DNA of 64,000 nt from Nanobdellota archaeon (GTDB taxonomy: Archaea; Nanobdellota; Nanobdellia; Woesearchaeales; UBA10107): contig JBHPFU010000001.1 in assembly GCA_042571125.1 (NCBI GenBank), forward strand, positions 193,225-257,224, given 5' to 3'. The translations under genes were made by a program, and so were the position numbers. This document shows positions 1,334 through 33,704 of this stretch, in pieces (position 1 is the first letter of the stretch; the number at the start of each line of letters is the position of its first letter). The notes under the pieces are model-generated. The model had not been told where the DNA came from, did no database searches, and saw only the letters and a program-made list of their open reading frames with translations.

Positions 1334-1338
1334 TTTAA

Positions 1339-2538: not shown

Positions 2539-2560
2539 GGTTTTGTGTAAACTCTCCTTA

Positions 2561-2568: not shown

Positions 2569-2601
2569 TATTTTGGTTTTATTTACTATTGAGTAGTTTA
2601 T

Positions 2602-3873: not shown

Positions 3874-3907
3874 AATATATATAGTTTTCTATTTAGAAGT
3901 AGTAAAA

Positions 3908-5194: not shown

Positions 5195-5216
5195 GGTGGT
5201 TTTTTTGTTTTAATTT

Positions 5217-5224
5217 TTTATAAA
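5217..5224 (-). promoter_or_regulatory. Archaeal TATA box for the glycosyltransferase gene
   Basis: The minus strand reads gcaaagcTTTATAAAaaattaaaacaaaaaaaccaccATG, which gives 30-nt spacing to the ATG at 5194. Confidence 0.5.
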
Positions 5225-5231
5225 GCTTTGC

Positions 5232-13141: not shown

Positions 13142-13915
13142 ATGACTAAAAAGAGGAAGGGTTCTGTTAGGGGTAAAACTACTGGGCAGAAGCGACATAA
13201 AAAAGAGGGCTTGCCACCCGGAATAAAGGTGCTGATTACATACGCATCTGTTGTTTCTTTATTCTATTTAATCTACTTATTTGTTGGAATCCAAAAACCA
13301 ATTTCAATATTTTTTGGTAATCTAATAACTGGTGCCGGCGCAATGCTTATTGATGTTATTTCTGTTGTTTTACTAGGTTTAATCATTTTTGGATTGGCAA
13401 AAAAGAAGTATTGGGTTTTCTGGCTTTCTTTGGGTTGGTTTGCTTATGGTGTTATTAATGCAATTGTTTCAGCCTTCATGATTCAAACTCAGTTTTTAAT
13501 TTTAAAAAATATGATGTTGCTAAGCGCAGTATCTGTCTTATTGCTTAATGGATTAATTGTTTGGTATATTTATTCTGAAAAAGAATTTTTCAAAACAAAA
13601 CATCTGAATAAAGTTACAAGAGCAAAAGACCATATGTTTGTTTATATTATCGCTTCTGTTTTGATAATTTCAATTTTGCTTACTTTAACAATCGGTGTTA
13701 ACTTTTACAAAACAACAGTAAAAACAGCAAACAGCATTATCGAAGAATTTACTCTTGTTGGAGCATCAGAATTTGTTTGCGATCAAAAGATTGGAGAAGA
13801 ACGAGATATATGTTATGTTGTTCTTGCTGTTACGCTAAATGAAACAGATGGAGAGATGTGCGAGAGTGTAGAATCTGATTTTTACAAATTAACTTGCTAT
13901 AGGGCGATATCATGA
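13142..13915 (+). CDS. Polytopic membrane protein with a Cys-containing C-terminal tail
   Basis: Basic N-terminus, at least 5 hydrophobic helices, and a C-terminal EFVCDQ..DICYVV..EMCESV..LTCYRAIS. The stop overlaps the start of the next gene (ATGA at 13912-13915). Confidence 0.65.
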   Translation: MTKKRKGSVRGKTTGQKRHKKEGLPPGIKVLITYASVVSLFYLIYLFVGIQKPISIFFGNLITGAGAMLIDVISVVLLGLIIFGLAKKKYWVFWLSLGWFAYGVINAIVSAFMIQTQFLILKNMMLLSAVSVLLLNGLIVWYIYSEKEFFKTKHLNKVTRAKDHMFVYIIASVLIISILLTLTIGVNFYKTTVKTANSIIEEFTLVGASEFVCDQKIGEERDICYVVLAVTLNETDGEMCESVESDFYKLTCYRAIS

Positions 13916-16062
13916 TGAATAAGAAAGCACAGGTAACAGTATTCATTATTCTAGGTATTGTGCTATTGTTCTCATCAGCTTTTGTGTTCTACATTAAAGA
14001 ACAAGTTACAGAATCCAAACCTGCCATAGGATTAGTAGAAGATGTTCCTTTAGAGATTCAACCTGTGCAGATGTTTGTTACAGATTGTTTAAAGAGAACC
14101 GCGGTTGAAGGTTTGAATAAAGCGGGATTACAGGGAGGATACATTGATACAAGTCAATTGAAAATACTTCCAAATCCAACAGAGAGCGAAGGAGTTGAAT
14201 TTTCTCCTGGAGGAATAAGAGTTCCTTATTGGCACTATATGAGTGGAAGAAATGATTGCGAAGGGAACTGTCAATTAGGTTCTAAACTTCTTCCTTTGAA
14301 AGGGGAACTAGGCAAAACAGTAGAAACAGAACTTGGAACATATGTTGACGAAAGATTAGAATTATGTGCTAATCTTGCTTCATTCGAAGATCAAGGATTT
14401 GAGATTAGGACTGGAGATTCAAAAACAAAGGTTATTGTTGGTGCTAACGATGTACATTTCCAGACAGAATATCCAATTACACTCACAAAAGCAGGAGTTG
14501 TCTCTGAAATGTCAAGTTTCTATACTAAAGTTGATGTAAGTCTTAGTAAGTTCTATGATCTTGCAAGGGATATAACCGAAAACGAGCTTGAAACGAGCTT
14601 TTTAGAATTCCAGTTAATTAATTTAATAAGCAGTTATGCAAGACCTGACGAGACTAAGCTTCCACCGATAGCTCATACTGGCTTCAGTTCATCGCCAGTT
14701 TATTGGGTGAAGAAAAACGTTGAAGATAAACTAAAGGAAATATTATCTATGTATGTTCCAGCACTACAAACTTCAAATACTTTAAACTTTAAAGGAAACC
14801 TGTATACTGGGGAAAGTTCATTAGGTGAAGGAATTTATAGTAACTTTATTGTGCCTATAGGCCGAGACTATCCATTAGAATCAAGCTTTATTTATCTGGA
14901 CTGGCCGATTTATTTTGATATAAGCCCGATGGACGGAGCGCTTATAAAACCAACAGAAATATCTGTTCCTCTTGTAAGTTCACTGCTCCCTATCCCTCCG
15001 TTACAAAAATATCAATTCCTTTATGACGTTTCATACCCTGTTGTTATTGAACTTTACGATCCTAACGCAATGGAAGGTGATGGTTTCACATTCCAATTCG
15101 CTCTGGAAACAAACCTAAGAAATAATGCTCCATTCAACACTTCTGCGGTTAAAGTTAGATCAATGGGTGGAAGCACAATGGTCTGTGATTCTGATAAAAG
15201 AAATTCTGGAGAAGTAACAGTAACTGTTACAGATTCGATAACTGGAGAACCTATTCCAGAGGTTGCAGTTTATTCTTCATTCGGAGCTGAAACTTGCTTG
15301 ATTGGATATACAAAATTAGAAAATGGTACTGCTGTGCTGAAATCAAACATGCCTGTAGGTATTGGTGCGATAGTAGTATCTAAATCCGGATACGTAACCT
15401 CAGTACAAAGACATGGAACAAAAGTTGGACGCGATGATTCATTATCTTTTGTAATGCATCCTATTATTGAAAAAAATATAACTGTATCTAAAAAACAGGT
15501 CATAAAACAAATGAATGGAAACTTTTTGTTTAATCCTACTGCGAGACCATTGTCAGCAACAGATGGAGTTATTCTAACTTTAACAAGATTAAAACAAATT
15601 GAAGCAGAAACAAATGTTGTTGAATCAGTAGAGATAATCGGCAATCAAAGCGGAGCTACAATGAGGCTCGCGCCAGGAACTTATGAAGTTGATGCAAGTT
15701 TAATAACACATGAGAGAACAGTGATTCCACAAGATGAAGTGTGTTATAAAGACGATTGGTACGATTCTATTGGACTTGGTGATGAAGAATGCCAAACAAT
15801 TCAAGAAGTTGTATTTGATGAATCGTTCCCTCACGGAGGATTAATTCTTGACTCAAGATCAGGTTACTTTGTGATTCCTCCGCAAGCCTTAGTAGACAGC
15901 AAACAAATAGAGTTTTATGTAATCGAAGCACCCGCAGGATACATACGAAACCCGCTTGGCGTAACAAATCTAAAACATGAAGATCTAGAAGAAATAAATA
16001 ATATTGAAGAATATTCGCGTCAGAACAGAGGTCACCTAGAACCGAGGTTCATAAATGAATAA
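13912..16062 (+). CDS. Large (716 aa) protein with class III (archaeal type IV pilin-like) signal peptide; cassette A
   Basis: N-terminus MMNKKA|QVTVFIILGIVLLFSSAFVFY: short basic stretch, small residue, Gln at +1, then a hydrophobic helix. Clear paralog of the 23727-25577 product. Confidence 0.55.
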   Translation: MMNKKAQVTVFIILGIVLLFSSAFVFYIKEQVTESKPAIGLVEDVPLEIQPVQMFVTDCLKRTAVEGLNKAGLQGGYIDTSQLKILPNPTESEGVEFSPGGIRVPYWHYMSGRNDCEGNCQLGSKLLPLKGELGKTVETELGTYVDERLELCANLASFEDQGFEIRTGDSKTKVIVGANDVHFQTEYPITLTKAGVVSEMSSFYTKVDVSLSKFYDLARDITENELETSFLEFQLINLISSYARPDETKLPPIAHTGFSSSPVYWVKKNVEDKLKEILSMYVPALQTSNTLNFKGNLYTGESSLGEGIYSNFIVPIGRDYPLESSFIYLDWPIYFDISPMDGALIKPTEISVPLVSSLLPIPPLQKYQFLYDVSYPVVIELYDPNAMEGDGFTFQFALETNLRNNAPFNTSAVKVRSMGGSTMVCDSDKRNSGEVTVTVTDSITGEPIPEVAVYSSFGAETCLIGYTKLENGTAVLKSNMPVGIGAIVVSKSGYVTSVQRHGTKVGRDDSLSFVMHPIIEKNITVSKKQVIKQMNGNFLFNPTARPLSATDGVILTLTRLKQIEAETNVVESVEIIGNQSGATMRLAPGTYEVDASLITHERTVIPQDEVCYKDDWYDSIGLGDEECQTIQEVVFDESFPHGGLILDSRSGYFVIPPQALVDSKQIEFYVIEAPAGYIRNPLGVTNLKHEDLEEINNIEEYSRQNRGHLEPRFINE

Positions 16063-19057
16063 ATTGAGATTGATTGCAACATTCATGATTTTCCTAGTCT
16101 TATCTTTACCAGTTTATGCTTCAATAAGTCTTAGAACTTATAACAGCGACGGAGTTGAAGGATTCAGACGTGAAACAGGAGATACAATAACTGTTGAGGC
16201 AACAATTGATCAACAGAGTATTGCACCATCACAAGTTAGATTGGCTAATTATCAGTTTGATAATTGTACAACAGTCGGTTCAAATTCAGTTTGTACATTC
16301 ACTTCTCCAAACAATGTTTATGGTGGAGAATATTCTTTTGAAGTTACTCATGCAGGCGAATCAGCAGACGGTTCATTTATTTCTGACGATACACCTCCAG
16401 ATGTACAAGCTGTAAACGTCCATCAGCAAACAGACGGAGTCTATGTTAAGTATAAAATATTTGAACACGCATATAGTTCTGTTTGTGGCAGATTAGATCG
16501 TATTGAATATACTGTTGATGGCCAAACCATTGATACAAAAACTCAAGGATTAGAATTAAAACATAATTGCAAATTTCCTTTAAATGATTCTAACCCTAAA
16601 GGAGAAGATGAACACCGTTTAACAATTCCGAGTACAGGTCTAAAAGAGATATGTGTTGTTGCATATGATGTTGTTGGGAATAGCGGAGAATTATGTAAAG
16701 ATTTTTATGTTGATCATTCTGCTCCTGTTGCTTCTAATTTAGAGATTCATGATTCAAACGGTTTGTTAAAATACATCGCACCAAAAAGAGGAACGATAAT
16801 GGTGGATGTAAAATTCACAGTCAAAGAAGAATATCTGAAAGTGATTACTGGCGATCTTTCTGACTTAACTGAAGTTTCTGCGCTTAAATCAGGATTAAGA
16901 AATTTGGAACCTACATGCTATCCTCAAAACTGTTCAGGAACATGTGCTTGCGAATTTAAGAATGTTCCAATGCAAAGACCTTCTGCAGGAACAGTTAATA
17001 TTAATTTACATATGGAAGATGATTCTGAAAATAAAGTCGATCAAGTACCTTCTTACACATTTATCCTTGATGATGTTGCTCCGCAGGTAAAATCTGTTGA
17101 GACTATTGTTTTCCAAGGAACAAATTATGTTAATCAGCCATACAATGTTGTAAGAGTAACATTAGAAGAAGCTGGATCTGGATTTAATCAGCAAAAAGTA
17201 TTTTTAGACTTATCCCCATTTATGACTGGAGATAGGGAGAGAGTTTACCCAACTGAATGCAATCAGCAAGGAGCAGAATGGGTTTGTGAATGGCGCGGTG
17301 TTACTGCATATGAACTAACAGAGAATCTACAAAAAACACCGCTTACATTAGCGTATCCTTCACAAGACGATGCAGGAAATATGGTTGAAGGTGGGGATAG
17401 CTCTGTTACTTTAGATAAAGAATATCCTGTAGTCGATAGTTATAATGTAAGAGCGGTTGGAGCACTAGGAGAATTCCCTTCACAGTATCCAAAATCTGGA
17501 GACACTATTGTTGTGATTGTAAAAGCAGAAGATACACTGCCTGTTACAGCTTATGCTGATTTCTCACAAGTTGCGCAAGTTAGAGGATATCACAAAACAG
17601 ATTGTACTTATGAAAATCAAGTTTCAACATGTACTTGGGAACGAGTTGGTCCATTGTATAGCGGACCTTTGTTCAATCAACCAGTTAATTTAGTATTAGT
17701 CGATTTGGTAGGTAATAATAACAGTGAACAGATTTATATTAATATTTCTGGTGTTGAAGGACAAGTTTCTGATTACTGGTCAATAAATTCAGGCGATCCA
17801 AGTCCAGCAAGGATTGATAAGCAAGTATTGAATTTCGTTCCATTCAAAGTTTATTTCCCAACTAATCTATCTGGACCTCCAAGCGTTGAACCAATATCTG
17901 TAAAACTTGTTGATTGTGATGGTGAAACAGGATTCCTTGATTTAAACAGAGATGATCTGGCATTGCCTGACTTACTTGGTGCTCCTGGAAAACAATTCTA
18001 TACGAAATTCAATCTAAGAGAAGGCACAGCTCCGACAACCTCTACTTTAACTTTTAATTGTACTTTCAGAATAATATCCAGAACAGATTTTGGTTATATT
18101 TCTCAGCCAGAAATAGATTCTGAAGAATTTACAATAAACTTCTATAACTCAGAATTAGGAACAATTGATGATGAGATTCAAGAAAAAATTGATGAAGAAA
18201 AAGATAGTTGGTTAGTTAAGGGAGGCTGGATAACATCAATCAATAAAGTAATTGAATACATAAAAAAATCCTGTCAGGTAATTCAAATGTTTGATAATGT
18301 TCGAAGCATAATCAGAGGGATAGATTCTATATTGGATCCACTTAGAGCAACTCCTGCTGAAAGAGTAGCCAAAGTCTTTAGTTTTCTCGATTCAAAGACA
18401 GGAAAAGTATTTGAAAAAATATATAATAAATTAGGTGAAACTTGTTATTTTATATCTTGCAGCACAAAATCAAAATATTATCCTGGTGCAAAAATTAAAG
18501 AGTGGTTTGCTAAGTGGCAAGGTTTACCTTTAGCAAAAGCTTTTGGTCTTAAAAAAGCAAGTGTTGATGATTTTGTTAAACCAGAAGATAGCATAATAAT
18601 CAGTTTAGCAACAATTTGCCTTCCAGGAGTATTCTATAATTTAAATAAGTACAGACAAGTAGAATGTGCGCATATTTACTGCATGGAATCTCAGATTCCT
18701 GCAGGTCTTCCTGCATACTATTGTGATAGGTTAAAAGCAACACAGATGTGTAAATACTTTTACGGAGAGATATTCCAATTAATTCCTATTGCACAGTTTG
18801 TTGATTATGTGTTTAATTTTATTAAAGATGCTATACGAGATCCAATCATCCTTTTAGGTATTGGATGGGCGTATCTTTGTGATCACCTCAGGGAAGGAAG
18901 CGGAATTGCTACAGCATTATGTTTAAAACCAAAAGATCTTGCGAAAGCTGCACAAGCAATTGACGCATTATTTGTTTCAAAAACATGGAAATCGATTAAA
19001 TTTGGAAGTGTTGATTATTGTAAATTAATTGAGGAATCTGAAGAGGGCGAAGAATAA
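16055..19057 (+). CDS. Secreted 1000-aa protein: Sec signal peptide, repeated Ig-like modules, Cys-rich hydrophobic C-terminal domain; cassette A
   Basis: Signal peptide MNKLRLIATFMIFLVLSLPVYAS. Module boundaries recur as DDTPPDV, VDHSAPVA, LDDVAPQV, LDKEYPVV. The C-terminal 300 aa are Cys-rich (CYFISC, ICLPGVFYNLNKYRQVECAHIYC, YYCDRLKATQMCKYFYG) and share motifs with the middle of the 1628-aa protein. Confidence 0.6.
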   Translation: MNKLRLIATFMIFLVLSLPVYASISLRTYNSDGVEGFRRETGDTITVEATIDQQSIAPSQVRLANYQFDNCTTVGSNSVCTFTSPNNVYGGEYSFEVTHAGESADGSFISDDTPPDVQAVNVHQQTDGVYVKYKIFEHAYSSVCGRLDRIEYTVDGQTIDTKTQGLELKHNCKFPLNDSNPKGEDEHRLTIPSTGLKEICVVAYDVVGNSGELCKDFYVDHSAPVASNLEIHDSNGLLKYIAPKRGTIMVDVKFTVKEEYLKVITGDLSDLTEVSALKSGLRNLEPTCYPQNCSGTCACEFKNVPMQRPSAGTVNINLHMEDDSENKVDQVPSYTFILDDVAPQVKSVETIVFQGTNYVNQPYNVVRVTLEEAGSGFNQQKVFLDLSPFMTGDRERVYPTECNQQGAEWVCEWRGVTAYELTENLQKTPLTLAYPSQDDAGNMVEGGDSSVTLDKEYPVVDSYNVRAVGALGEFPSQYPKSGDTIVVIVKAEDTLPVTAYADFSQVAQVRGYHKTDCTYENQVSTCTWERVGPLYSGPLFNQPVNLVLVDLVGNNNSEQIYINISGVEGQVSDYWSINSGDPSPARIDKQVLNFVPFKVYFPTNLSGPPSVEPISVKLVDCDGETGFLDLNRDDLALPDLLGAPGKQFYTKFNLREGTAPTTSTLTFNCTFRIISRTDFGYISQPEIDSEEFTINFYNSELGTIDDEIQEKIDEEKDSWLVKGGWITSINKVIEYIKKSCQVIQMFDNVRSIIRGIDSILDPLRATPAERVAKVFSFLDSKTGKVFEKIYNKLGETCYFISCSTKSKYYPGAKIKEWFAKWQGLPLAKAFGLKKASVDDFVKPEDSIIISLATICLPGVFYNLNKYRQVECAHIYCMESQIPAGLPAYYCDRLKATQMCKYFYGEIFQLIPIAQFVDYVFNFIKDAIRDPIILLGIGWAYLCDHLREGSGIATALCLKPKDLAKAAQAIDALFVSKTWKSIKFGSVDYCKLIEESEEGEE

Positions 19058-20289
19058 TGCAGCAATATCAAGGAGAATATCCAATCGGAGCTGAACAGAA
19101 AAAGCTTCCATTGAAAATGATTTTAATAGTTTTAGCTGCAATTTTAGTTATTGTTCTTGCTGTGTTCTTCATCACAAGACCTGAAGCTCCTGAAGAGGTT
19201 GTACTTGAAGAACAGATTGTTGAAGAAGAATTAGACATTAATGTTGTTTTCGCATCATTTGTTGACGATAATTTTAACTATCAACCTCAACCAAGCGCAG
19301 AATATCTGCAAGACAGAGGAGTTTACATTTACATTGAAGTTAATGGATTTAAACAAGACAGAGACCTAAGTGTTGATCTTACTCAAGACATAGAGATTAG
19401 AGATTCTGAAGGAGAGATTGTGTTTTCACAAAAAGGATTAGGATCTTTGAAAGAAACGGGTATAGAAATTGCCAAATTTAGTAACGCAATTCCTACTCTT
19501 GACTGGGAACCAGGAAGATATTTTGCAAAAATTGTTGTAACCGACAATCTAGCAAGAAAATCTGCAGAAAAAATATTAGAATTTACAATAGTAGAAAAGT
19601 CAACAGAAGTTATTGAAAAAACTCTCGATTTAAGCGGAATTGTTTCAGAAAATATTGCAGAAACAAATTTGATAAGGCAACAAACAGTTTGGAATCCTGA
19701 TGGAAGTGTAATCCCAGAATTATCTTTTAATTATAGTTTTGTTGGGGATTTTGCTGAAGTAGACTTATCACAATTTAACGACGCGCCATTTAAAATTCCA
19801 GAAAGATTTGATGCTGGAATTTACAGCATAGAAATAAAATACATCAATTTAGAGAATGGCAAATCGGTTTCTGTTAAAGATGTAATAGAAGTGAAAAAAG
19901 AATTAAGTGTAGATCAGCTTGTGTTTGCGAGTTCAATAGATGAAGAATATAACTATGTTGCACAGCCAAACTCAATTTATTCAGTAGGTGATGCTGTTCA
20001 TGTTTATATGAGGATTGTTGATTATATTCATGTTGAAGGAGAAGGAAGATATAATGTTTGGTTTGTACAAGATGCAATAATACTTGACGAAAATGGAAAT
20101 GAGATCTCTTCAAGAGAAAATCTTACAAGAATAGACGATGTTAATGATGAAAAGAAAGATGCATATAATCTAAAAAATATATTTGAAACAAATAACCTTC
20201 CCTCTGGAACATATACTTATAGAGTAATTGTTAGAGACATAAACGGAGGACAAGAAACAATAAAGGAGGCCAAATTTTGGCTTGAATAA
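19057..20289 (+). CDS. N-terminally anchored protein (410 aa) with internally repeated beta-sandwich-like domains; cassette A
   Basis: TM anchor MILIVLAAILVIVLAVFFI. Internal repeats: VVFASFVDDNFNYQPQPSAEYLQDRGVYIYIEV...GRYFAKIVVTD versus LVFASSIDEEYNYVAQPNSIYSVGDAVHVYMRI...GTYTYRVIVRD. The start overlaps the upstream stop (TAATG). Confidence 0.6.
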   Translation: MQQYQGEYPIGAEQKKLPLKMILIVLAAILVIVLAVFFITRPEAPEEVVLEEQIVEEELDINVVFASFVDDNFNYQPQPSAEYLQDRGVYIYIEVNGFKQDRDLSVDLTQDIEIRDSEGEIVFSQKGLGSLKETGIEIAKFSNAIPTLDWEPGRYFAKIVVTDNLARKSAEKILEFTIVEKSTEVIEKTLDLSGIVSENIAETNLIRQQTVWNPDGSVIPELSFNYSFVGDFAEVDLSQFNDAPFKIPERFDAGIYSIEIKYINLENGKSVSVKDVIEVKKELSVDQLVFASSIDEEYNYVAQPNSIYSVGDAVHVYMRIVDYIHVEGEGRYNVWFVQDAIILDENGNEISSRENLTRIDDVNDEKKDAYNLKNIFETNNLPSGTYTYRVIVRDINGGQETIKEAKFWLE

Positions 20290-20291
20290 AA

Positions 20292-21077
20292 ATGAAATCT
20301 ACAAATAAAAAAATAGGGATCTTAACGGTATTTTTAATTCTCCTATTCGTTTTGCCAGTTACTTTTTCAGAAGAAGATAACAAAGTCCAACTAGATACAT
20401 CAGATATAGAAGTTTTTAAAGTTAGAAGAGATTTAACTAATGTGCTTGATGCGATAGATGAAGATTTGGAGAGGATTGGGAGAACAGCACCAGCATCAAT
20501 TAGTCTTCAATCATGGCAGAGCGATTTAAACTTTGAATCCTTCGACACTAAACAAGAGCTAGAAGACTTTAAATCTGTAGTACAACGAATGCAAGACGCA
20601 TACACAAAAACTGAATTTGGTGTACAAACAAGACCTATTGTTACAACTACGGGGTCTATGGATACATATAAAGAACTTGTGGATAATGAAGAAATAGGAT
20701 ATTCTGCATTCAGCAATATTGATATTACATTAGAAGTAAATGCAGATGCAGATTCCACAGTAAGTGACATCAACCGATATGATGGGATCAAACTAGCCGA
20801 TGCTGTAGAAAATGATTATTATTATGATCTTGAGTTTTTAGATGAAGATGGAGATCCGGTAGGCATCCTTGATGAAAGTATGCTAAAAGAAGCATTAACT
20901 GAATATATTGAAGTTGAAGGATCCGAAGATGAACCTGTTACTATTCCTTTGAAAGCAGAAACAGAAGAAGAGGAAGAAATAGTTGCATATACTGGGACAG
21001 GAGGAGAACCTGCTCCGAATGAATATCCTGGGGGCACAGATTATACAGGAGATCAATGTTACATATTTGGTGCATAG
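20292..21077 (+). CDS. Secreted acidic protein (261 aa); cassette A
   Basis: Signal peptide MKSTNKKIGILTVFLILLFVLPVTFS. Strongly Asp/Glu-rich mature part. Two-nt spacer from the upstream gene. Confidence 0.6.
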   Translation: MKSTNKKIGILTVFLILLFVLPVTFSEEDNKVQLDTSDIEVFKVRRDLTNVLDAIDEDLERIGRTAPASISLQSWQSDLNFESFDTKQELEDFKSVVQRMQDAYTKTEFGVQTRPIVTTTGSMDTYKELVDNEEIGYSAFSNIDITLEVNADADSTVSDINRYDGIKLADAVENDYYYDLEFLDEDGDPVGILDESMLKEALTEYIEVEGSEDEPVTIPLKAETEEEEEIVAYTGTGGEPAPNEYPGGTDYTGDQCYIFGA

Positions 21078-21081
21078 TAGA

Positions 21082-23707: not shown

Positions 23708-23726
23708 ATATAGCTAATATATAAAG

Positions 23727-25577: not shown

Positions 25578-25578
25578 A

Positions 25579-28500
25579 ATGAAAGAGATGAAAGAAGCAA
25601 TAGCATTGTTTTGTATACTTCTAGTTCTAACTTTGCCTGTTGGCGTGGCTGATGCGTTATCTATATCTAATATTGACCTAGAAGTTTCTGATAGGTACGC
25701 AATTGTGAACTGGGAGACAGACGAAGCTTCAAATAGCCTTGTTCATTACGATGTAACTAATGTTACTCTTGCTCTTCAAGGACAAGATTCTGTTCTGAAA
25801 ACAAATCATAGCTTAATGTTGACTAATTTAATTGCAGATACTAAATACTATTATTCTGTTGAATCCTCAAATCCGAATGGAACAGTGGTTGATAATAATT
25901 CTGGAGCATACCATGAATTTATGACAGATTTAGTAGATACAACTCCTCCGTTTATTATCGCAGATATCCCTGAATATAATGCTGGGGCTTTGATTGATAT
26001 AGAAGTCTCTACAGAACCGGACAGCATAATATTCCTGTATGTTAATAATAACTTGACAAGATTCTATAATGGTTCATCTTTTACTTTCCCTTCTGTTAGA
26101 TTAGAATCAGGACTTAACACAATCAAAATAATCACAAGAGATCCTTCTTTTAATGAAAACGAAGAATCATTTAATGTTTTTGCAGATACTGCTCCGCCAG
26201 ATGTTACATACAGTCCTGCGATTAAGAAAGCATACACAACATTATCCGTTACATTCAGCGGTTCTGTTACAGATAATTCTGGACAGCCAGTATCAATGTG
26301 GTTTTATATTGATGGAAGTACAAAACCAAACGCAACAATAGCAAACCTAAGCTCGCCTTGGTCTACAACATTAGATTTTAAAACAGAAGGGTACCATGAT
26401 CTTAAGATTGTTGCAAAAGATGTTGCAGGTGTTGAATATAGTAATGATTTACAAGATATCTGGTTCGATACAACTCCTTTAAGATTTAATAATACAAATT
26501 TAAACGAACTTTCCCCTGCTTACACATTATTCCAGACAATAAGAGGTAATGTTAACAAACCTCATGCGAAAATAATAGCAAAAGTAAATAATGAAACAAC
26601 TTCTGGTACTTTTACAACAAGTTTACAAGATTTAATTAGAAGTTTAGCAGCAGGAGAAATGTCATTTGATACAGAAGCAGATGAAAACGGAGATTTCTCT
26701 TTAGAGATAAGACTTTCCCAAGAACCTAAGTATCAAGTAAGATCTGCAGAAGATGTTCCAGCAGAAGCTTCATCTTCATTAAGCTATATTGACTTTACTA
26801 CAGGAAGATTCTGGATGAATGATGTAGAACTTATCGTAATTGATGAGCATGATTTATGGAATTCAACAGAAGAAGAGTGGGTTGCATACACAAAATGTGG
26901 TTCAGGAGGTCAGTGGAGAATTGATGGTCCAAACGCTCCAACTCCGCCATCATTACCCGAACCAATATTTAGAGAAGGTTTTGCTCAATTCCATCAAGAA
27001 TTTAAATTGAAGTGGAACGGAGGAACACCAAGACAGGATGTTGATGTACATCATGTTGAAGTAAACCCAAGAGTTGAACTTACCAGACAAACAGGTGAAA
27101 GATTAGATTTAGAACGTGAATTATTTGAAGGTGTTAAGTTATTTCCTTCAGCACCACCGTATGGAGAAAGTTTCTACTTGACTTATGACTTGGCTCCATT
27201 GACAGAAAAATTAGAAGGAGACTACAAATGGTATGATATCCAAGAATTAAGTTTCCCTGTGCAATTAGAAGTTGAGTATAGTTATGAAAAAGCAGGAGGA
27301 AGACCTTCTGGAACATTAACACAGATTGAATGCTGGGAGGTAAACATACAGATTGAAAGAACAATTCCTCCTGATCACATACCTGAAAACTTTTTGAAAG
27401 GAATGGTTAAATTCTTTAACGGATCTATTAATTTGATTGATAAGATATTAAAACCATTAAAAACAATAAAAACCTATGCATACATTTCCTGTTTTGCAAC
27501 ATGGCCTGTTTATTTTGTTATGTGGGTTCGTGCAAGATTCTCTTGCTTTGGAATAGGTTCAGACAAAGTTGAAGAGTATTGTGCAATGGATGCAGATGGG
27601 GAGATGAGCGTTGAAGGAGATAATCCTCCGACAGGCATGCAAACATGTTGTAATGCTGTTGGCAGTCAATTGAATAAACAAAAATGGATGAACCTGTTCT
27701 GTGACAGGGTTTTCTGTCCAAGCGTACCTTCCTTAAGCCACCATGTTGATACATATTCTGATGCGATTACAAGAAGAGGTTCTTCTGAATGTAACGGCTG
27801 GCAAGGATTAGACAAGGGTTCTGATCAATATGAAAAATGTAAAAGAGAATTCAATAGAGCATGGGGAGATGTTTTCATAATAGATTATCCATTTGAAGAT
27901 GAATTCCAGGCAGCAAGAGTTGCAGCAGGACTTGAAACAGGAAGAACAGGAATATTTGCAAGCATATTCAAGAATGTTGGAGGATTTGCGACTAATGTTT
28001 GTTCAAGAAGACATGTTGGAGAAGAACAGATCTATTATCCTGAAGGAACAAAAGCAACCGATAAAGAAGTTAGAGGAAACCAGACAGTTAACAATGCATT
28101 TAGAATAAATCCTGATGGAAGCGTTAATGTAGGAAATGTTAAAATTATCCGTGTTTACAGAGGAGGGAAGTGGCAGGAAGACACAACTCAGTTTACTGCT
28201 ACAGGAAACATACTCGTAGTAACACCAGAAGGATGTTGCGGTACAAGTTGTAGCAAACCAGATGGAACTGCAGAGTATACTAGATGCAGTAAAGCAGTAA
28301 CTGGTTTCGGTACTCCTCCTAAAGCAGATGTAGTAAGACTTCCAAACTATGTACAGAATGCAAGAGGGGTAAAAGCAACAGATAAATACATATTAAATCC
28401 AACAAGAGGACCAATCGCTGCTACAAAAGCAGGATGTATACCTGCGGTTTATTCTTACTTAACTGTATGGAGAGGATTGATGGATGTAGGAAGAACATGC

Positions 28501-30465
28501 TTCCAGTCAATACTTAAGACCGGTGAAGGAGATTCAGGAGTTTGCCAGACATTTATAGGGCAGGTAGCTTGTGATCTTATTATTGATGTACTAAGTTGTG
28601 CTAAGAATATAATCAACAAAGGAGGAGTTGGTATTTCTGGTGAAAAAGCAAGAACAGCTAATCCTTTAACTAAATTCTTTAGTGCTGTAGCCTCTGGAGG
28701 AGATGAGATTGAACGTACTATCAGCGGAAGGTACGGAGAAACAAATGTTTTCAGAACAGCATTCACAGAACGAAAACTAATTCACTCTGTCTGTCTAGCT
28801 GCATTTACAGGAGACTGGGATATGGACATCATGGCAGACATATTAGGTGAAGCATTTGAAATGCCAGTAGACAGTATTGGTTCTGTTTTCCCTGCTGACA
28901 GAAGATTCATGGGTTCAAATCCATTAGACTTTGGAAGAACAAATTATATTTATCACGCAGGAGTATTGCTATCTGCAGGAGCAGACTTAAATTACGAAGT
29001 TCAATTGGTGTGCAGTAAATCAAATGACTGTGCGAGATATAGTGAAGAAAGTAATCCTGGTGGAAGATGTGATTGCTTCTACAAAGAAGATGAAAGAACA
29101 TTCACTGTTAAGTCTGGTTCATTAGAACAAGGAGAGATGTTGAATGAAGATATTTACGAAACAATTGAAGGTTCTGACTTTAGGTATGATCATGCAAGAT
29201 TAATCTGGAGATACACAGATTCTAATGATGAAACTGTTCCAGGTAAAAAAGAAACTTTCCTAAGCCAGAGAGGAATTGAACCTCCTGCAAAATGTGAGCT
29301 TGATATAGACACAGGTAATTTCAGATGTTCATTTGATGTTGCAGACCAAGGTGTTGCATACTTTGTTGACGGACCAAGACCTGCAAATCCTGATACAGTT
29401 TATTCAACAGGTAATCCTCTAAATCTGGAAACAAAAATTGAAGTAATAAGTCCAGAAGGAAGACAACTAACCAAATTCATAGGATTTATAGTAAGGAATC
29501 AAAACAAGAGAATTGTATACCCTAATTCAAGAGACGGGGGAGTATTCCAATTAGATGAAGGAGAAAAAACATACAGTTTCCCTGGAAGTGTAATGACTCT
29601 GCGTGAAGATGATTTCGGATCTGCAGATATAGAAAGAGTTGCAGCTAGAACAAGCCAAATACAAGTAAAAGATAACCTAGGTTATGTTGTGGCAACAAAT
29701 CCCACCTCTAACTTTGCGGTTGTGTTTATTGATACTTCAGGAAAATACGCGTGCGTAGATACAACTATAATTAATGATGGAATACAATTATTGGGGGGTT
29801 TACCAACAACTTCAACAACAACCTATACTCCTGGAACCGCAGTAAGATGTAAAGGATTGAGTTTTACGATTATGACCGCGCATGCCGATATAAAGATAAC
29901 AGAACTTAAAGCAAATCAAATTTATGATAAAGGAAGTCTAATCGAATTTAGACCCCCTACAACAACAAGCGTAGGACAATGTTCACCAGAGCAAGTCCAA
30001 TGGAATGTAACTGCCACACTTTATTATGGTACAAGAGATGGAAATACAAATACATGGTCTTCAACAGGAACTCCTGTCAGACATCAAGGAAGAAAACAGG
30101 AAAAGAGTGTTTTAATTCCTGCTAAATGTGTTCATCAACCTAGCGAAACCGATAAGCCAGCGATTACTGGTTTCAAAGTAACTCCTGACGAAATAAAGTT
30201 AGATACTGAAAGAGTAGATTTCGAAGCAACAGTAATTGATGCTAGTAGAATGCAAGAAGTAATCTTACTTGTAAATGGAGAAAGAACAAAGCAAGCAGCT
30301 AAAGGAGATAATAATCTTTGGTCTGGATCAATAAGTATCGCTGACTATGTAGGCATCCTTAAATCAGGAAATAATGAGTTCAATATCACTGCTAGGGACA
30401 GCCAAGGAAATGTAAGGTCAGTTACAACTTCGAGTCCAGTTACATACGTCACATCAACACAGTAA
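25579..30465 (+). CDS. Giant (1628 aa) secreted Cys-rich protein: signal peptide, FN3-like domain, Ig-like modules, Cys-rich core; cassette B
   Basis: Signal peptide MKEMKEAIALFCILLVLTLPVGVADA. The FN3-like segment is AIVNWETDEASNSLVHYD...HSLMLTNLIADTKYYYSVESSNPNG. Module boundaries are VDTTPPF, ADTAPPDV, FDTTPLRF. The central region has many Cys pairs (CCNAVG, CDRVFC, CCGTSC, GCIPAVYSYLTVWR). Confidence 0.65.
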   Translation: MKEMKEAIALFCILLVLTLPVGVADALSISNIDLEVSDRYAIVNWETDEASNSLVHYDVTNVTLALQGQDSVLKTNHSLMLTNLIADTKYYYSVESSNPNGTVVDNNSGAYHEFMTDLVDTTPPFIIADIPEYNAGALIDIEVSTEPDSIIFLYVNNNLTRFYNGSSFTFPSVRLESGLNTIKIITRDPSFNENEESFNVFADTAPPDVTYSPAIKKAYTTLSVTFSGSVTDNSGQPVSMWFYIDGSTKPNATIANLSSPWSTTLDFKTEGYHDLKIVAKDVAGVEYSNDLQDIWFDTTPLRFNNTNLNELSPAYTLFQTIRGNVNKPHAKIIAKVNNETTSGTFTTSLQDLIRSLAAGEMSFDTEADENGDFSLEIRLSQEPKYQVRSAEDVPAEASSSLSYIDFTTGRFWMNDVELIVIDEHDLWNSTEEEWVAYTKCGSGGQWRIDGPNAPTPPSLPEPIFREGFAQFHQEFKLKWNGGTPRQDVDVHHVEVNPRVELTRQTGERLDLERELFEGVKLFPSAPPYGESFYLTYDLAPLTEKLEGDYKWYDIQELSFPVQLEVEYSYEKAGGRPSGTLTQIECWEVNIQIERTIPPDHIPENFLKGMVKFFNGSINLIDKILKPLKTIKTYAYISCFATWPVYFVMWVRARFSCFGIGSDKVEEYCAMDADGEMSVEGDNPPTGMQTCCNAVGSQLNKQKWMNLFCDRVFCPSVPSLSHHVDTYSDAITRRGSSECNGWQGLDKGSDQYEKCKREFNRAWGDVFIIDYPFEDEFQAARVAAGLETGRTGIFASIFKNVGGFATNVCSRRHVGEEQIYYPEGTKATDKEVRGNQTVNNAFRINPDGSVNVGNVKIIRVYRGGKWQEDTTQFTATGNILVVTPEGCCGTSCSKPDGTAEYTRCSKAVTGFGTPPKADVVRLPNYVQNARGVKATDKYILNPTRGPIAATKAGCIPAVYSYLTVWRGLMDVGRTCFQSILKTGEGDSGVCQTFIGQVACDLIIDVLSCAKNIINKGGVGISGEKARTANPLTKFFSAVASGGDEIERTISGRYGETNVFRTAFTERKLIHSVCLAAFTGDWDMDIMADILGEAFEMPVDSIGSVFPADRRFMGSNPLDFGRTNYIYHAGVLLSAGADLNYEVQLVCSKSNDCARYSEESNPGGRCDCFYKEDERTFTVKSGSLEQGEMLNEDIYETIEGSDFRYDHARLIWRYTDSNDETVPGKKETFLSQRGIEPPAKCELDIDTGNFRCSFDVADQGVAYFVDGPRPANPDTVYSTGNPLNLETKIEVISPEGRQLTKFIGFIVRNQNKRIVYPNSRDGGVFQLDEGEKTYSFPGSVMTLREDDFGSADIERVAARTSQIQVKDNLGYVVATNPTSNFAVVFIDTSGKYACVDTTIINDGIQLLGGLPTTSTTTYTPGTAVRCKGLSFTIMTAHADIKITELKANQIYDKGSLIEFRPPTTTSVGQCSPEQVQWNVTATLYYGTRDGNTNTWSSTGTPVRHQGRKQEKSVLIPAKCVHQPSETDKPAITGFKVTPDEIKLDTERVDFEATVIDASRMQEVILLVNGERTKQAAKGDNNLWSGSISIADYVGILKSGNNEFNITARDSQGNVRSVTTSSPVTYVTSTQ

Positions 30466-30503
30466 TTCTATATAATATTGTCACTTTAAAGTGGTCAAAA
30501 AAG

Positions 30504-30518
30504 AGAAAGGTTTATATA
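30504..30518 (+). promoter_or_regulatory. BRE/TATA promoter (AGAAAGGTTTATATA) for 30541-31338
   Basis: The purine-rich BRE-like GAAAGG lies directly 5' of TTTATATA. The TATA starts 30 nt before the ATG at 30541. Near-identical 15-mers occur at 50114-50128 and 34463-34477 (minus strand). Confidence 0.55.
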
Positions 30519-30540
30519 CGAGTTAGGCATAGCTAAATAC

Positions 30541-31338
30541 ATGAAAACCCCTAAAAAGAGCACTATACTGGCTACAGCAGCCTTAATGAGCACTTCTCCG
30601 GTTATTTTACCTAATGTTAATGCTCAACAGCAAGCTCAAGCAGGACAAGCTCAAACTGCTTCTACACAAGCAAGTACTTCAACTGCTCAGACAACAGTTG
30701 CATATAATCCTGGAGAGGGATTTAAGTATAAATACAGCAGAAAAGCAACACTTGCTGATCTTACTAATGGTTCTATGGGTGGAAATAAAAGAGAGATATT
30801 AAATGATGGTTTGCTAACATTAGGTTTTGCAGGCACGGGCGCATTAATGTTTTATCTTGGAGACAAGAATCCAGAGAGTAAAGAAAGACTTACTTATGGT
30901 GGAATCGCATTCTCAGGAGCAGCATTAAAATCAACTTATGATTTCTTTAAAGGAGTAATCAGACGTGAACCTTCACATCCTCTTACTCAGGATGAAAGAA
31001 CATTGTTAACAAAAAGACTTGATGAAAGAAATAATGAAATTGATGATTATAATAAAGAAGCTAAAAGAAGAAACATAATCCAACAACAAGCACATGATCA
31101 AAGAAAAGCTGAAGCAGGAGCAAGACTTGCTAATGTTAAGTGGAAAAAATATGCAGTTATTGGCGGAACAGGTTTAGCAATTGGAACAGGAATGCTAGTT
31201 TACGCAAATAACGATCCAAAATTACCAGAAAGAAGAAAAGAAAACGTACAGATTGCAGCAGCAATACCTTTATCAGCATTTATTGGATGTCTTTATCAAG
31301 GCGGTTCGAAAGTTCTTGAATATAAATTCGGAAAATAA
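30541..31338 (+). CDS. Secreted/membrane protein (265 aa) with Gln/Ala/Thr-rich linker and hydrophobic hairpins; cassette B
   Basis: Signal peptide MKTPKKSTILATAALMSTSPVILPNVNA, a low-complexity stretch QQQAQAGQAQTASTQASTSTAQTT, hydrophobic segments LLTLGFAGTGALMFYLG and AVIGGTGLAIGTGMLVY. The N-terminal module is paralogous to the next gene. Confidence 0.6.
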   Translation: MKTPKKSTILATAALMSTSPVILPNVNAQQQAQAGQAQTASTQASTSTAQTTVAYNPGEGFKYKYSRKATLADLTNGSMGGNKREILNDGLLTLGFAGTGALMFYLGDKNPESKERLTYGGIAFSGAALKSTYDFFKGVIRREPSHPLTQDERTLLTKRLDERNNEIDDYNKEAKRRNIIQQQAHDQRKAEAGARLANVKWKKYAVIGGTGLAIGTGMLVYANNDPKLPERRKENVQIAAAIPLSAFIGCLYQGGSKVLEYKFGK

Positions 31339-31383
31339 AACTAAATACTAACATTTAAATATTAATTCTATTTAGTAAAACTC

Positions 31384-32838
31384 ATGGTGGGGGGCAGAAG
31401 AAAGAGTACAGCTTTAACTATATGTGCGGTTACTGCAGCATTAGTCCCTTCTCCAGTACAAGCCACAGAATATGAATTAAGTCCTTTAGTTAAAGGAGAA
31501 GATATTAAAGAAGAAAGAGTTTCTGAATTGCGAAAAGAAGGATTCTGGGGGACTATAACTTCATTAGGTTTAGGAGCAGGATTGGCCTTTGCAGCAAGCA
31601 AAAATGAAGATGGCAAGTGGATGTATATCGGATCTGTAGCAACAATCCCATTTACAGTTAAATATCTAAGAAAAGGAGTAAATGCACGCTCTAAAGTTGA
31701 ATATAGATTTGGAGAAGATAGAACTTCATTTGATAGGGAAGCAGAACAAAGAAACAGAGAGATTAAGAAATTCAATAAATGGGTTTTAGATGAGAGAGGT
31801 ACACCAGAGCAAAAAGAATTGCTTTTATCAGACAAAGAAAAAAAAGAACTTGCAGATTATAGAGCAAAACAAAAGAGTTATGACAGGTTAGATCATATTA
31901 TCGGTGCAGTAAGTGTTCACTTAACTCATCCAATAACTGATTCTACAAAAAGAGAAGTAAGTTCTTATGTTGGACAGCTTAAATCGCTTAAAAGACAAGG
32001 AAGTTCTCTATCTAAGTCTGAATTTGATTTAAAAGTAGCATCTTTAACAAAAGAAGCAGCAAGCCACAGACTTTCATGGATTCAAGAAGCAGAAATAGCA
32101 GAAGAAAAAAAGCAAACATTAAATGAATTAATTATGAGATACAGAAATAATCCTTGTTTCTCTGAAGACCTAAAAAACAAAAAGATCTCAAGACTAAAAA
32201 GGCAGTTTAGCGAATGCGTGTCAATTGGAGATTTTACAGAATGTGAAAATGATTTTGAAGCTCATGAATTAGGATTCCAAGCAAGAGCAGCAAAAGCAGA
32301 TGAACGAGCAAAACCCGCAAGAGGATTAATGGATTATCTATCTGGGAAAGCAGACAAAATAAATGAAAATGAACTAGTATTGTATGTAGAGGGGGTTAGA
32401 GATCTAAAAAAACAAGCAAGATGCGGAAAAATAGATTCAAGTTCTTTATTCCAACTTAGAAATGATATAGACCTAGCAGTCAAAAGGAATATGTTTGATG
32501 TTTACGCAGAAAGGTACGTACAACAATTATCAAAAGAAGAAGTTCCAGATAAAAAAGGAGCATTCATAAGAAGAAAAGTAGAAGAAGTAGGCAGAACAAA
32601 TTTCATTAATGGTACAAAAGCAATACATTATGTTGGATTAGAATACGATCCATTTGGGGACCTTCAAGGAAAAGTTTATTTTGCCACATTAGCAGGATAT
32701 ACTCCCGAACAAGAGAGGTGGGAGGAGATAATGTCTAAAGAAAGAGATGTCCGTCCAAACACCAAAGTTGACTTGATAATAGAAGATGTTGTTAGAGAAC
32801 TAAAAAAAGTAGAACCTTTGATTAAATTTGTTAAGTAG
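31384..32838 (+). CDS. Secreted/membrane protein (484 aa) sharing the N-terminal module of 30541-31338, followed by a long charged helical region; cassette B
   Basis: RKSTALTICAVTAALVPSPVQA (signal). FWGTITSLGLGAGLAFAASKNEDGKWMYIGSVATIPFTVKYLRKG aligns with LLTLGFAGTGALMFYLGDKNPESKERLTYGGIAFSGAALKSTYDFFKG. DRTSFDREAEQRNREIKKFNK aligns with ERTLLTKRLDERNNEIDDYNK. TTTAAATA lies 30 nt upstream. Confidence 0.6.
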   Translation: MVGGRRKSTALTICAVTAALVPSPVQATEYELSPLVKGEDIKEERVSELRKEGFWGTITSLGLGAGLAFAASKNEDGKWMYIGSVATIPFTVKYLRKGVNARSKVEYRFGEDRTSFDREAEQRNREIKKFNKWVLDERGTPEQKELLLSDKEKKELADYRAKQKSYDRLDHIIGAVSVHLTHPITDSTKREVSSYVGQLKSLKRQGSSLSKSEFDLKVASLTKEAASHRLSWIQEAEIAEEKKQTLNELIMRYRNNPCFSEDLKNKKISRLKRQFSECVSIGDFTECENDFEAHELGFQARAAKADERAKPARGLMDYLSGKADKINENELVLYVEGVRDLKKQARCGKIDSSSLFQLRNDIDLAVKRNMFDVYAERYVQQLSKEEVPDKKGAFIRRKVEEVGRTNFINGTKAIHYVGLEYDPFGDLQGKVYFATLAGYTPEQERWEEIMSKERDVRPNTKVDLIIEDVVRELKKVEPLIKFVK

Positions 32839-32873
32839 AAAGCTTTTTAAAAGAAGAATATAAATTATATTGT

Positions 32874-33704
32874 ATGTACTTAGAGAAAGCAAAAGAAGCA
32901 TTAAATCTAATCAAAAAGAGGCCTTTTGTTCTGCCAATTATTGTTTTAGTAGATCTTTTATTCTTGGTTTCATACGGATTCAGTAGATCAATAATACAAA
33001 GAAAACTGGCTCCTTTTTTACAGGTAATAATTGATTTATCAAGTAAAGTTACATCAAGCGCAACAGAACTATTTAATGCAGGAGGAGATCCATTACAAAT
33101 GATCCTAAGTGATCCGACATTCACCACAAGCGTGGTTTCAATAGCAAAGATCTTCCTTGTTTTTGCACTTTCAATTTATTTACTATGGACATTACTTCAA
33201 GGTTCTGGATGGTCTATGGCCAACAAATTCATAGATAAAAAGATTAAATTATTTAGTTATGTAAGTAAATTCGCTCTTGTTAACTTATTCTGGTTTGGCT
33301 TGGCATCATTAGTAATATTTGGATTCATGAGATTTACATTATATAATTTATTTTCATTAAACAATTCGGTTTCAGCAGCAATTCCAAACTGGGTTAGTAT
33401 TGTTGCGAATGCAATAATTATTTATTTTGTGTTTATATCAATTGCATTAGTAACTAAATTAGATTTTCTTGAGAACATAAAGACAACATTCAGGGTTGGA
33501 TTCAAGAAATTCCCCAAGATAATAACAACTTACGCATTAATTATTGCAGTAATTGCTACTCTTAATCTTTTTATATCTTTTTTAATGAAAACAAGCTTGA
33601 GTTTAGGCATTGGTGTAGGGATTGTTATGGTAATTCCCATGCTAACATATTCTAGAATATATTTCATGCTAATAATAGAAAAAGTAATAAAAGAAAAAAA
33701 TTAA
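32874..33704 (+). CDS. Polytopic membrane protein, 'TM-X' family copy 2 (closes cassette B)
   Basis: Paralog of the 22970-23707 product (motifs listed there). TTTTAAAA at 32844-32851 lies 30 nt upstream of the ATG. Confidence 0.65.
   Translation: MYLEKAKEALNLIKKRPFVLPIIVLVDLLFLVSYGFSRSIIQRKLAPFLQVIIDLSSKVTSSATELFNAGGDPLQMILSDPTFTTSVVSIAKIFLVFALSIYLLWTLLQGSGWSMANKFIDKKIKLFSYVSKFALVNLFWFGLASLVIFGFMRFTLYNLFSLNNSVSAAIPNWVSIVANAIIIYFVFISIALVTKLDFLENIKTTFRVGFKKFPKIITTYALIIAVIATLNLFISFLMKTSLSLGIGVGIVMVIPMLTYSRIYFMLIIEKVIKEKN

Follow-up and report, generated by a model that had tools for sequence, protein, structure and literature searches.

What is encoded by the two adjacent sets of surface-protein genes that occupy positions 13142-33704 of the stretch of DNA described here? 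The stretch, hereafter the window, comprises 64,000 nucleotides (nt) of a Nanobdellota archaeon of the Woesearchaeales (contig JBHPFU010000001.1, assembly GCA_042571125.1), has a GC content of ~34% and encodes a class I LysRS, a form III RuBisCO, TrmB and SRP54. The block consists of 12 co-directional open reading frames (ORFs) on the + strand. An earlier note, made from the letters alone, had read it as two paralogous cassettes of pilin-like, giant Cys-rich and polytopic membrane proteins with the same gene order, and as a candidate for an undescribed surface or host-contact structure. The present analysis suggests that the block represents two ancient paralogous copies of a three-component surface module specific to Woesearchaeota-type DPANN archaea. 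Cassettes A and B share a core of three families, here called fam1 (A1 and B1), fam2 (the giants A2 and B2) and fam6 (A6 and B5). That this core would form a surface-anchored cell-contact module, in which fam1 is processed, retained by its helix and holds a giant arm, a fam6 partner and variable payloads, is a proposition that we regard as evenly balanced.

How far are the two cassettes copies of each other? The coordinates, strand and lengths first reported for the ORFs are reproduced by ORF calls, and NCBI annotates identical genes (locus tag ACFLZ7_01175 is the 716-amino-acid (aa) product A1, and ACFLZ7_01200 the 245-aa product A6). Neighbouring ORFs overlap or are separated by at most 45 nt, as had been noted, except between B2 and B3 (30465 to 30541), where the spacer measures 75 nt. 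None of the 12 products passes the Pfam or NCBIfam cut-offs, and sub-threshold fn3/Ig-like signals occur in the giants and A3 only, so that the claim that no named family is represented is confirmed. A1 and B1 are clearly related by BLASTP (E=4e-37, 26% identity across 533 aa). The pairwise similarity between A6 and B5 is borderline (E=0.006); a hidden Markov model (HMM) made from the A6 of the window and 16 orthologues sited directly upstream of B1-type genes finds B5 with an alignment that spans the whole protein (49.3 bits, E=1.4e-16). With this HMM, two further polytopic proteins encoded in the window were negative, 200 shuffled B5 sequences scored at most -3.8 bits, and the B-cassette orthologues L084_261 and L088_264 matched at ~1e-8. 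The paralogy of the pilin-like pair and of the membrane pair, both of which had been proposed by eye, is thus borne out.

The giants are more difficult. Pairwise BLASTP between A2 and B2 is not significant. With hhalign, the N-terminal Ig-like repeats of independent A2-only and B2-only profiles align at 94% and 90% probability, and with a deep B2 profile the giants align at the ATICLPGVFYNLNKYR / KAGCIPAVYSYLTVWR motif over 68 columns (81% probability, E=1.2e-5), the shared form being ..CLPG/A..Y/NL...[YW]R.. This recovers the first of two motif pairs on which the giants had been matched by eye; the second, CYFISC/AYISCF, was not recovered. Homology of A2 and B2 has moderate support from these profile comparisons. 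A match of an iterated B2 HMM to A2 (E=3e-24) was discarded as circular, the HMM having absorbed A2-type sequences. The idea that A2 and A5 are fused in B2 found no support, as hhalign gave 1.6% probability when the C-terminal domain of A5 was aligned with the C-terminal region of B2.

Sequence comparison between the cassettes revealed no similarity of A3, A4 and A5 to B3 and B4, and paralogy is therefore limited to three genes per cassette, out of five or six: the same-order duplication that had been proposed stands for fam1, fam2 and fam6, but not for the remaining genes. No DNA-level repeats linking the cassettes were found, and A1 and B1 (26% identity) are further apart than each is from its closer orthologues (~30-43% identity). 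The duplication must therefore be ancient, and a recent tandem duplication or an assembly artefact is ruled out. The features of the block are collected in Table 1.

Table 1. Genes of the block at 13142-33704, in window coordinates (TM, transmembrane)
Gene	Family or type	Position	Strand	Product
w01		13142..13915	+	257-aa polytopic membrane protein, 5 predicted TM segments, small Cys-containing C-terminal domain
A1	fam1, A-type	13912..16062	+	716 aa; signal MMNKKA|QVTVFIILG; alpha/beta domain 47-410; three beta-sandwich domains 430-716
A2	fam2, A-type giant	16055..19057	+	1000 aa, Sec signal, 27 Cys; 5-6 Ig-like repeats; C-terminal Cys-rich helical domain with CLPGVFYNLNKYRQ motif
A3	variable slot	19057..20289	+	410 aa, N-terminally anchored, acidic; sub-threshold Ig-like Pfam signals
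A4	variable slot	20292..21077	+	261-aa secreted protein, very acidic (23% D+E)
A5		21082..22977	+	631-aa secreted protein; variable acidic N-terminal part, conserved ~230-aa C-terminal domain
A6	fam6	22970..23707	+	245-aa membrane protein, 5-6 TM segments
B1	fam1, B-type	23727..25577	+	616 aa; signal MKMTGKRG|QITLFIILG; paralogue of A1
B2	fam2, B-type giant	25579..30465	+	1628 aa, Sec signal, 33 Cys; N-terminal fn3/Ig-like array, Cys-rich helical region, beta-rich C-terminus
B3	variable slot	30541..31338	+	265 aa; signal-like N-terminus, Q/A-rich stretch, Gly-rich hydrophobic segments
B4	variable slot	31384..32838	+	484 aa; signal-like N-terminus, charged helical remainder
B5	fam6	32874..33704	+	276-aa membrane protein, 6 TM segments; paralogue of A6

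Does the arrangement recur elsewhere? The N-terminal motif of fam1 was found, and confirmed by tblastn, at 479 loci in contigs representing one genome per species, and ORF mapping covered 83 loci. A2-type homologues are present in 73 of these. Of the A-type fam1 genes, 48 of 63 have a giant as their immediate downstream neighbour, as do all 15 of the B-type; fam6 is found directly upstream of 16 of 20 B1 genes, and A6 precedes the B1-type gene in all 21 loci showing one within reach. Of 37 informative loci, 29 have any fam6 gene downstream. The order A1-A2-(A5)-A6-B1-B2 recurs in at least 14 loci, nine loci have a permuted third order (giant, small gene, fam6, fam1), and B-type orthologues also occur as stand-alone B cassettes. 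Pairing is cognate, A-type fam1 genes adjoining giants of ~1000-1300 aa and B-type genes giants of ~1400-2700 aa, where these are complete. In locus L089, a relative at 40% identity, the order is MetRS, a 137-aa product, w01, A1, A2, A5, A6, B1 and B2, without A3 and A4. From these gene orders, the constant core consists of fam1, fam2 and fam6, to which the A5 family can be added; the slots in between vary. The conservation in related genomes of the pilin-like/giant/membrane arrangement, which the earlier note had offered as a test, is strong. Since the strict cognate linkage survives both permutation and ancient duplication, it argues for a physical complex of the three proteins.

All gene contexts examined come from metagenome-assembled genomes (MAGs) of Woesearchaeota/Nanoarchaeota or from unnamed metagenome contigs. 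Dozens of MAG records with the cluster are titled 'uncultured Methanosarcinales archaeon', including L004 (OZ246410.1, a 0.77-Mb 'chromosome 1'), and these labels look wrong. The methionyl-tRNA synthetase (MetRS) gene lies upstream of the block in the window (9991-11922) as it does in L089 and L001, the latter with another partial fam1/fam2 pair in between. This synteny of a housekeeping gene with a surface-protein cluster is unusually stable and reaches distant Woesearchaeota relatives. Cargo of a virus or mobile element is ruled out, as no relatives of the module were found on IMG/VR viral contigs and the block is chromosomal and syntenic with MetRS.

What kind of protein is fam1? The protein collection holds 108 homologues, all of them 'hypothetical' and none with a Pfam domain, and the named sources are all Woesearchaeota/Nanoarchaeota. 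The N-terminal consensus is [KR][KR][GA]|Q[VLI]T[IVL]FII[IL]G, the bar marking the predicted cleavage site, which reads K-A|Q-V-T-V in A1 and R-G|Q-I-T-L in B1. A FlaFind-like pattern for class-III signals is matched by 91 of 109 members, with a leader of 4-8 aa in most. Hydropathy and AlphaFold2 (AF2) modelling place a hydrophobic helix of ~20 residues directly past the predicted cleavage site, and conservation of this otherwise fast-evolving protein is highest in that N-terminal helix (0.55-0.58 versus 0.30-0.43 elsewhere). The reading of the N-terminus as a class III signal thus holds; 'pilin-like' refers to this signal and does not imply that filaments are formed. No C-terminal hydrophobic anchor segment is predicted in A1, and the anchor is N-terminal.

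The AF2 model of A1 (mean predicted local distance difference test score, pLDDT, 86.7) has a helix at 4-33, a low-confidence linker at 33-38 and a separate helix at 47-73. The alpha/beta domain carries the invariant residues Cys59 and Cys152. When the model was compared with PDB and BFVD by Foldseek, only the beta-sandwich domains were matched (SlaB, TIE, SpaC, CnaB and transthyretin-like; TM-score on the query at most 0.17), and a fam1 profile had no match among PDB sequences. The N-terminal alpha/beta domain, as modelled, thus has an orphan fold with no PDB match. Short fam1 variants of 247-258 aa also occur, in which the protein stops after the N-terminal helix and its first part. They are found in L004/L089 (about 224-6071, - strand), beside giants in L089, and at L087:13551-14327, where one starts an apparent further cassette; they may be truncated genes, split genes or a distinct subtype.

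Could fam1 then be part of a pilus? In a tip or minor-pilin complex of the type IV pilus (T4P) kind, fam1 proteins would be large minor pilins, built into the tip or base of a filament by way of their class-III helix. The giants would ride on them as the PilY1/PilC adhesins ride on bacterial minor pilins, and the machinery and the major pilin would be encoded elsewhere. The FlaFind-type motif and the exceptionally conserved helix are what such a complex would have, and archaeal T4P loci often hold large adhesin-like class-III proteins together with Cys-rich components. DPANN genomes are reported to encode the type IV filament (TFF) systems 1 (Epd/EppA type) and 4A, and in Saccharibacteria, which are ultrasmall in an analogous way, episymbiosis is driven by type IV pili (PMC9894109). 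However, pilins have a continuous alpha-1 helix that packs on the globular domain, whereas in the A1 model a low-confidence linker at 33-38 would separate the two, and position +5 of fam1 is Phe rather than Glu. Near the cassette, the contexts examined contain neither a T4P ATPase nor a platform protein or peptidase, and there is no small pilin with the fam1 motif: in the window the motif is confined to A1 and B1, and among the related loci covered its carriers are 600-900 aa long, apart from four of 256-378 aa. A polytopic membrane protein in each cassette would also have no obvious place in a tip complex. We consider this account rather unlikely. As to the established archaeal filaments, archaellum, Aap and Ups, neither the FlaI/FlaJ-type ATPase and platform families nor archaellin/pilin or accessory Pfam families were found in the locus or the window.

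A second alternative is an S-layer-like envelope in which fam1 would be the anchor or stalk and fam2 the canopy, analogous to SlaB and SlaA, in two or three paralogous sets. SlaB (8qox_B) is ranked second for the A1 model (E=1.2e-5), but the match spans generic beta-sandwich domains only, with a TM-score of 0.12-0.18. The pairing of an anchor with a large secreted protein does recall slaB-slaA, although fam1 is anchored N-terminally by a class-III-type helix and not by a C-terminal TM helix and coiled coil. The cassettes are widespread in sampled Woesearchaeota/Nanoarchaeota and syntenic with MetRS in at least three genomes, which counts in favour of an envelope, and in one metatranscriptome genes for S-layers, whose identities are not given, rank with the most highly expressed ones of Woesearchaeota. 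The giants, on the other hand, hold 27-33 Cys, while S-layer proteins are usually Cys-poor, and the giants' variable length (about 824-3073 aa among listed representatives) and varying fused enzymes fit adhesins or effectors better than the subunits of a lattice. Known S-layer systems do not include a polytopic membrane protein of their own for each set, and there were no S-layer matches in Pfam or NCBIfam among the block proteins. An S-layer is accordingly judged quite improbable. By sequence or by fold, then, nothing in the block matches the known S-layer, archaellum, Aap or Ups families that had been named in advance as grounds for dropping the proposal, or another family of known character.

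Pfam detects only weak fn3/Big matches in B2, and an A2-family profile finds only Ig-like matches among PDB sequences. The Cys-rich helical region of B2 extends over ~558-1134, with residues 935-1134 as its best-conserved core. An exhaustive HMMER search with this core yields a family of 494 representative clusters at E<=1e-3, of which 220 remain at E<=1e-30, with lengths of 824-3073 aa among the 150 representatives listed. A word-indexed protein search returned no match for the core, not even to itself, and two for the fam6 profile, which reflects a limit of the index rather than absence. The AF2 model of B2 residues 540-1180 is mostly helical (pLDDT 70.5) and has no fold match in PDB by Foldseek (best E=1.3); as modelled, the Cys-rich core thus has a second orphan fold.

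Why would such proteins be displayed on a cell? A clue comes from other genomes, where large B2-family members have C-terminal hydrolase domains that pass the Pfam cut-offs. P0163 ends in a Peptidase_M74 domain (2e-19), P0164 and P0208 end in Amidase_2 (6e-21 and 2e-18), P0225 carries SLT (1.6e-9) together with VanY (8e-10), and P0136 carries SLT (4e-10). Cassette partners can be similarly equipped: the B cassette of L085 includes a separate SLT protein (3e-11), and the 1455-aa protein in the A5 slot of L019 has a Peptidase_M23 domain (3.8e-17). Five types of hydrolase, SLT, Amidase_2, VanY, M74 and M23, are thus found on cassette members across genomes. The cassette context was verified for P0164, which has a fam1 gene (E=1e-137) directly upstream, and for P0225, which has a fam6 gene (E=3e-14) directly downstream. 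Ten B2 homologues were scanned, of which five were positive, a biased rate because they had been picked by length or from phmmer leads; phmmer searches with the hydrolase domains found no clear further copies. A different payload is seen at L028:12139-15690, where an A2-type giant of 1184 aa ends in a cupredoxin/plastocyanin-like domain (Cupredoxin_1 1.4e-9, Copper-bind 6e-9), that is, a copper-binding, non-hydrolase domain on an A2-type scaffold.

Archaea are not known to make murein, and the hydrolase domains therefore point to the walls of bacteria. At the level of genomes, the domains are direct evidence for an action of some of these archaea on bacteria, and the presence of five peptidoglycan-hydrolase types in homologous giants and their partners elsewhere lends support to the host-contact idea of the earlier note. 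The same cannot be claimed for the present organism, since its own cassette proteins have no enzymatic domain: neither A2 nor B2 contains SLT or another hydrolase at E<=0.1 (Pfam).

Parts of this picture have been drawn before. Castelle et al. (2021) described extracellular proteins of up to 3000 aa that are specific to Woese- and Pacearchaeota and contain a lytic transglycosylase domain (fam00969), within a 'Module 98' of 51 lineage-specific families, mostly of unknown function (PMC8204110). Vigneron et al. (2022) made a similar point and proposed peptidoglycan degradation as a nutritional strategy (PMC9723730); attachment to bacteria has been proposed for such large extracellular murein-transglycosylase proteins (PMC8204110, PMC9723730). 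The word 'undescribed' is therefore too strong for giants with lytic transglycosylase domains, but it holds for the trio and the cassette organisation, as no description of the fam1-fam2-fam6 trio or its duplication was found in the literature.

Do the hydrolases mean that the proteins are simply scavenging exoproteins? In that case the giants and slot proteins would bind or digest bacterial necromass without any higher organisation, and the linkage to fam1 and fam6 would reflect co-regulation only. Murein-hydrolase domains of five families would be useful for such a purpose to metabolically dependent scavengers such as the DPANN archaea, of which the form III RuBisCO in the window, a marker of nucleotide salvage, is a reminder, and a nutritional role is what the literature has proposed (PMC9723730). 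However, most family members, including both giants of the window, are without an enzyme domain, and conservation falls on the anchor helix, the orphan domain and the Cys-rich core rather than on the enzymes. The strict cognate linkage of three non-enzymatic families through permutation and duplication argues for physical interaction instead. Unorganised scavenging is therefore very unlikely in our view.

What is the role of fam6? Its members share one Asp in TM1, a G-x-I-W motif, N/W in TM3 and a C-terminal W-x-R-x-Y; the conserved residues of A6 are D23, W98, N118, W121 and W231-x-R233-x-Y235. There is no match in Pfam or among PDB sequences. Prepilin peptidase, archaeosortase, rhomboid and CPBP protease were considered as identities and ruled out because, besides the missing Pfam and PDB matches, the family has a single conserved Asp and no conserved Cys, His or Ser, and thus no catalytic-looking signature.

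The remaining genes are conserved to very different degrees. The A5 family is found in 36 loci at lengths of 359-1527 aa; the invariant residues of its C-terminal domain are C415, Y464, C550 and C574, and its profile has no match among PDB sequences. A3 has homologues in three loci only and is absent from the 40%-identical relative L089, while A4, B3 and B4 have none in the mapped loci; elsewhere the slots of these four genes are empty or filled by other genes. B3 and B4 are weakly similar to each other (E=0.12), and B4 has no match in PDB. Sec-type signals are predicted for A4 and A5 as they are for the giants. The membrane protein w01, which has no Pfam or NCBIfam match above cut-off, has homologues in 12 loci and lies directly upstream of 9 of 71 A1-type genes; it is possibly an accessory to the module.

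How might the parts work together? In the reading that we prefer, that of a surface-anchored cell-contact module, fam1 would be exported and presumably processed as a class-III (prepilin-type) signal protein and then retained by its conserved hydrophobic helix, with the orphan alpha/beta domain close to the membrane and the three beta-sandwich domains next in the chain. The fam2 giant would be a distal adhesive arm made up of an Ig/fn3 array and a disulfide-rich helical core, probably held on the cell by its cognate fam1. The likely role of fam6 is that of a membrane-embedded partner, either the base of the structure or a dedicated assembly factor for the fam1 helix. A3, A4, A5, B3 and B4, together with the distal parts of the giants, would be exchangeable payloads. 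Because such payloads are murein hydrolases in other genomes, the module would make contact with other cells and, in those lineages, breach bacterial walls. For the present organism, whose copies carry no hydrolase domain, we infer cell contact as the function.

Several points weigh against this reading. The support is computational throughout, the function of the module being read from sequences and predicted structures, and the complex of fam1, fam2 and fam6 is deduced from gene linkage only. No prepilin peptidase, secretion ATPase or platform protein is encoded in the 64-kb window, and none within 10 kb on either side in eight other distinct contexts with precomputed Pfam annotation. Pfam models of class-III and pilin N-termini match neither A1 nor B1 at E<=0.1, nor any of 33 fam1 members at E<=0.001, and NCBIfam models give none either. 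Beyond generic Ig-like repeats, the homology of the giants depends on 68 aligned columns. Hydrolase domains are fused to B2-family giants only here and there (in at least 5 of the 150 representatives listed), and Pfam detects no hydrolase or other enzymatic domain in the giants and slot proteins of the window.

A bolder version can be stated, in which the trio is a self-contained surface organelle of the Woesearchaeales, put together from a prepilin-type anchored stalk, a disulfide-locked giant arm with a new fold and a dedicated membrane base, working without a linked pilus ATPase, existing as A, B and C paralogues, and used for docking onto bacteria and opening their walls. We put this forward tentatively and think it more doubtful than probable; if true, it would provide the molecular basis of an episymbiosis or predation of archaea on bacteria. 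Of the archaea not yet in culture, Woesearchaeota and related groups belong to those with the widest distribution. A block of 'hypothetical proteins' now becomes a defined three-component module at hundreds of loci, to which the giant murein transglycosylases noted earlier are tied through specific partner proteins. It is recognisable by diagnostic motifs ([KR][GA]|QxTxFIIxG in fam1, CLP[GA]...L...[YW]R in the giants and the C-terminal W-x-R-x-Y in fam6) and gives targets for metaproteomics, antibodies, cryo-electron tomography and the prediction of complex structures.

Other features of the window lie outside the block. The convergent neighbouring operon encodes a secreted protein of 1389 aa (37000-41169, - strand) with 67 Cys, no Pfam match and no homology to fam2; the HExxH motif that it contains at residue 1231 (HEHAH, window 37465-37479) suggests that it may be a cryptic zinc metalloprotease. 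A secreted protein of 732 aa (34569-36767, - strand) has a weak CARDB match only and ends, at residues 538-732, in four tandem Cys-rich repeats of ~50 aa with the pattern C-x2-W-G/F-P...C...R-T-C...C...C-P. The RuBisCO large subunit (5232-6533, - strand; Pfam E=6e-92) is of the form III type that is typical of nucleotide salvage in DPANN archaea. A 254-aa protein (43817-44581, + strand) consists of a class II aminoacyl-tRNA-synthetase core only (tRNA-synt_2b, 1.4e-16) and may, from its sequence, be a stand-alone synthetase paralogue; the last 4 nt of its gene are shared with the beginning of a radical-SAM gene.

How does the module compare with known systems? The sortase-type pilins and adhesins retrieved by Foldseek (SpaC, BcpA and PitA) differ from A1 in that the likeness extends to CnaB/transthyretin-like domains only, at a TM-score of at most 0.13; a sortase-type C-terminal hydrophobic anchor is not predicted in A1, no explicit search for LPXTG having been made. 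SlaA/SlaB of the Sulfolobales likewise combine a membrane-anchored beta-sandwich protein with a very large secreted partner encoded next to it, but in the cassettes the polarity of anchoring is opposite, the proteins are Cys-rich, there is no coiled coil, and variable enzymatic payloads and an extra membrane protein are added. With the T4P minor-pilin/PilY1 tip, and with its use in Saccharibacteria, the cassettes share the gene coupling of a prepilin-type protein with a very large one that resembles adhesins, in a cell that is ultrasmall and presumed to be episymbiotic. They have no PilY1/DUF2341 domain, linked ATPase or platform, or small pilins with the same motif, and bring a 5-6 TM protein of their own.

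Also comparable to fam1 are proteins with class-III signals that do not form filaments, namely the sugar-binding proteins of the Sulfolobus bindosome and the DUF361 substrates of the peptidase EppA. These, too, have a short basic leader, [GA] at -1, a helix of ~20 residues and a large globular part. The DUF361 motif QXSXEXXXL, which marks EppA substrates, agrees with fam1 in Q at +1 and S/T at +3, but where the motif has S and E, fam1 carries T (+3) and F (+5). Unlike these proteins, fam1 has no match to Pfam Class_IIIsignal, no adjacent peptidase or ATPase, and an orphan globular fold.

For the giants, the giant genes of Omnitrophota (bioRxiv 10.1101/2023.11.21.568195) offer a parallel by description, as they occur in predicted predators and are implicated in cell-wall degradation; these organisms are bacterial, and the abstract of that report mentions no class-III partner or cassette duplication. 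A further comparison is with the murein transglycosylases of Woese- and Pacearchaeota, which come from the same lineage, reach ~3000 aa, are extracellular and have been proposed to bind or degrade bacterial walls. B2 is likewise very large, Sec-secreted and, in the contexts examined, restricted to this lineage, and in P0225 and P0136 SLT is carried on a B2-type Cys-rich core. In contrast, A2 and B2 of the window have no SLT (GH23) domain at E<=0.1, and while fam00969-type proteins, which were compared by description only, are defined by SLT, the B2 family is defined by a core of ~200 aa that is usually without a hydrolase. The cassettes differ further from the transglycosylases described so far in that they offer four more types of hydrolase, and in that the giant is one member of a trio that recurs in A, B and permuted cassettes.

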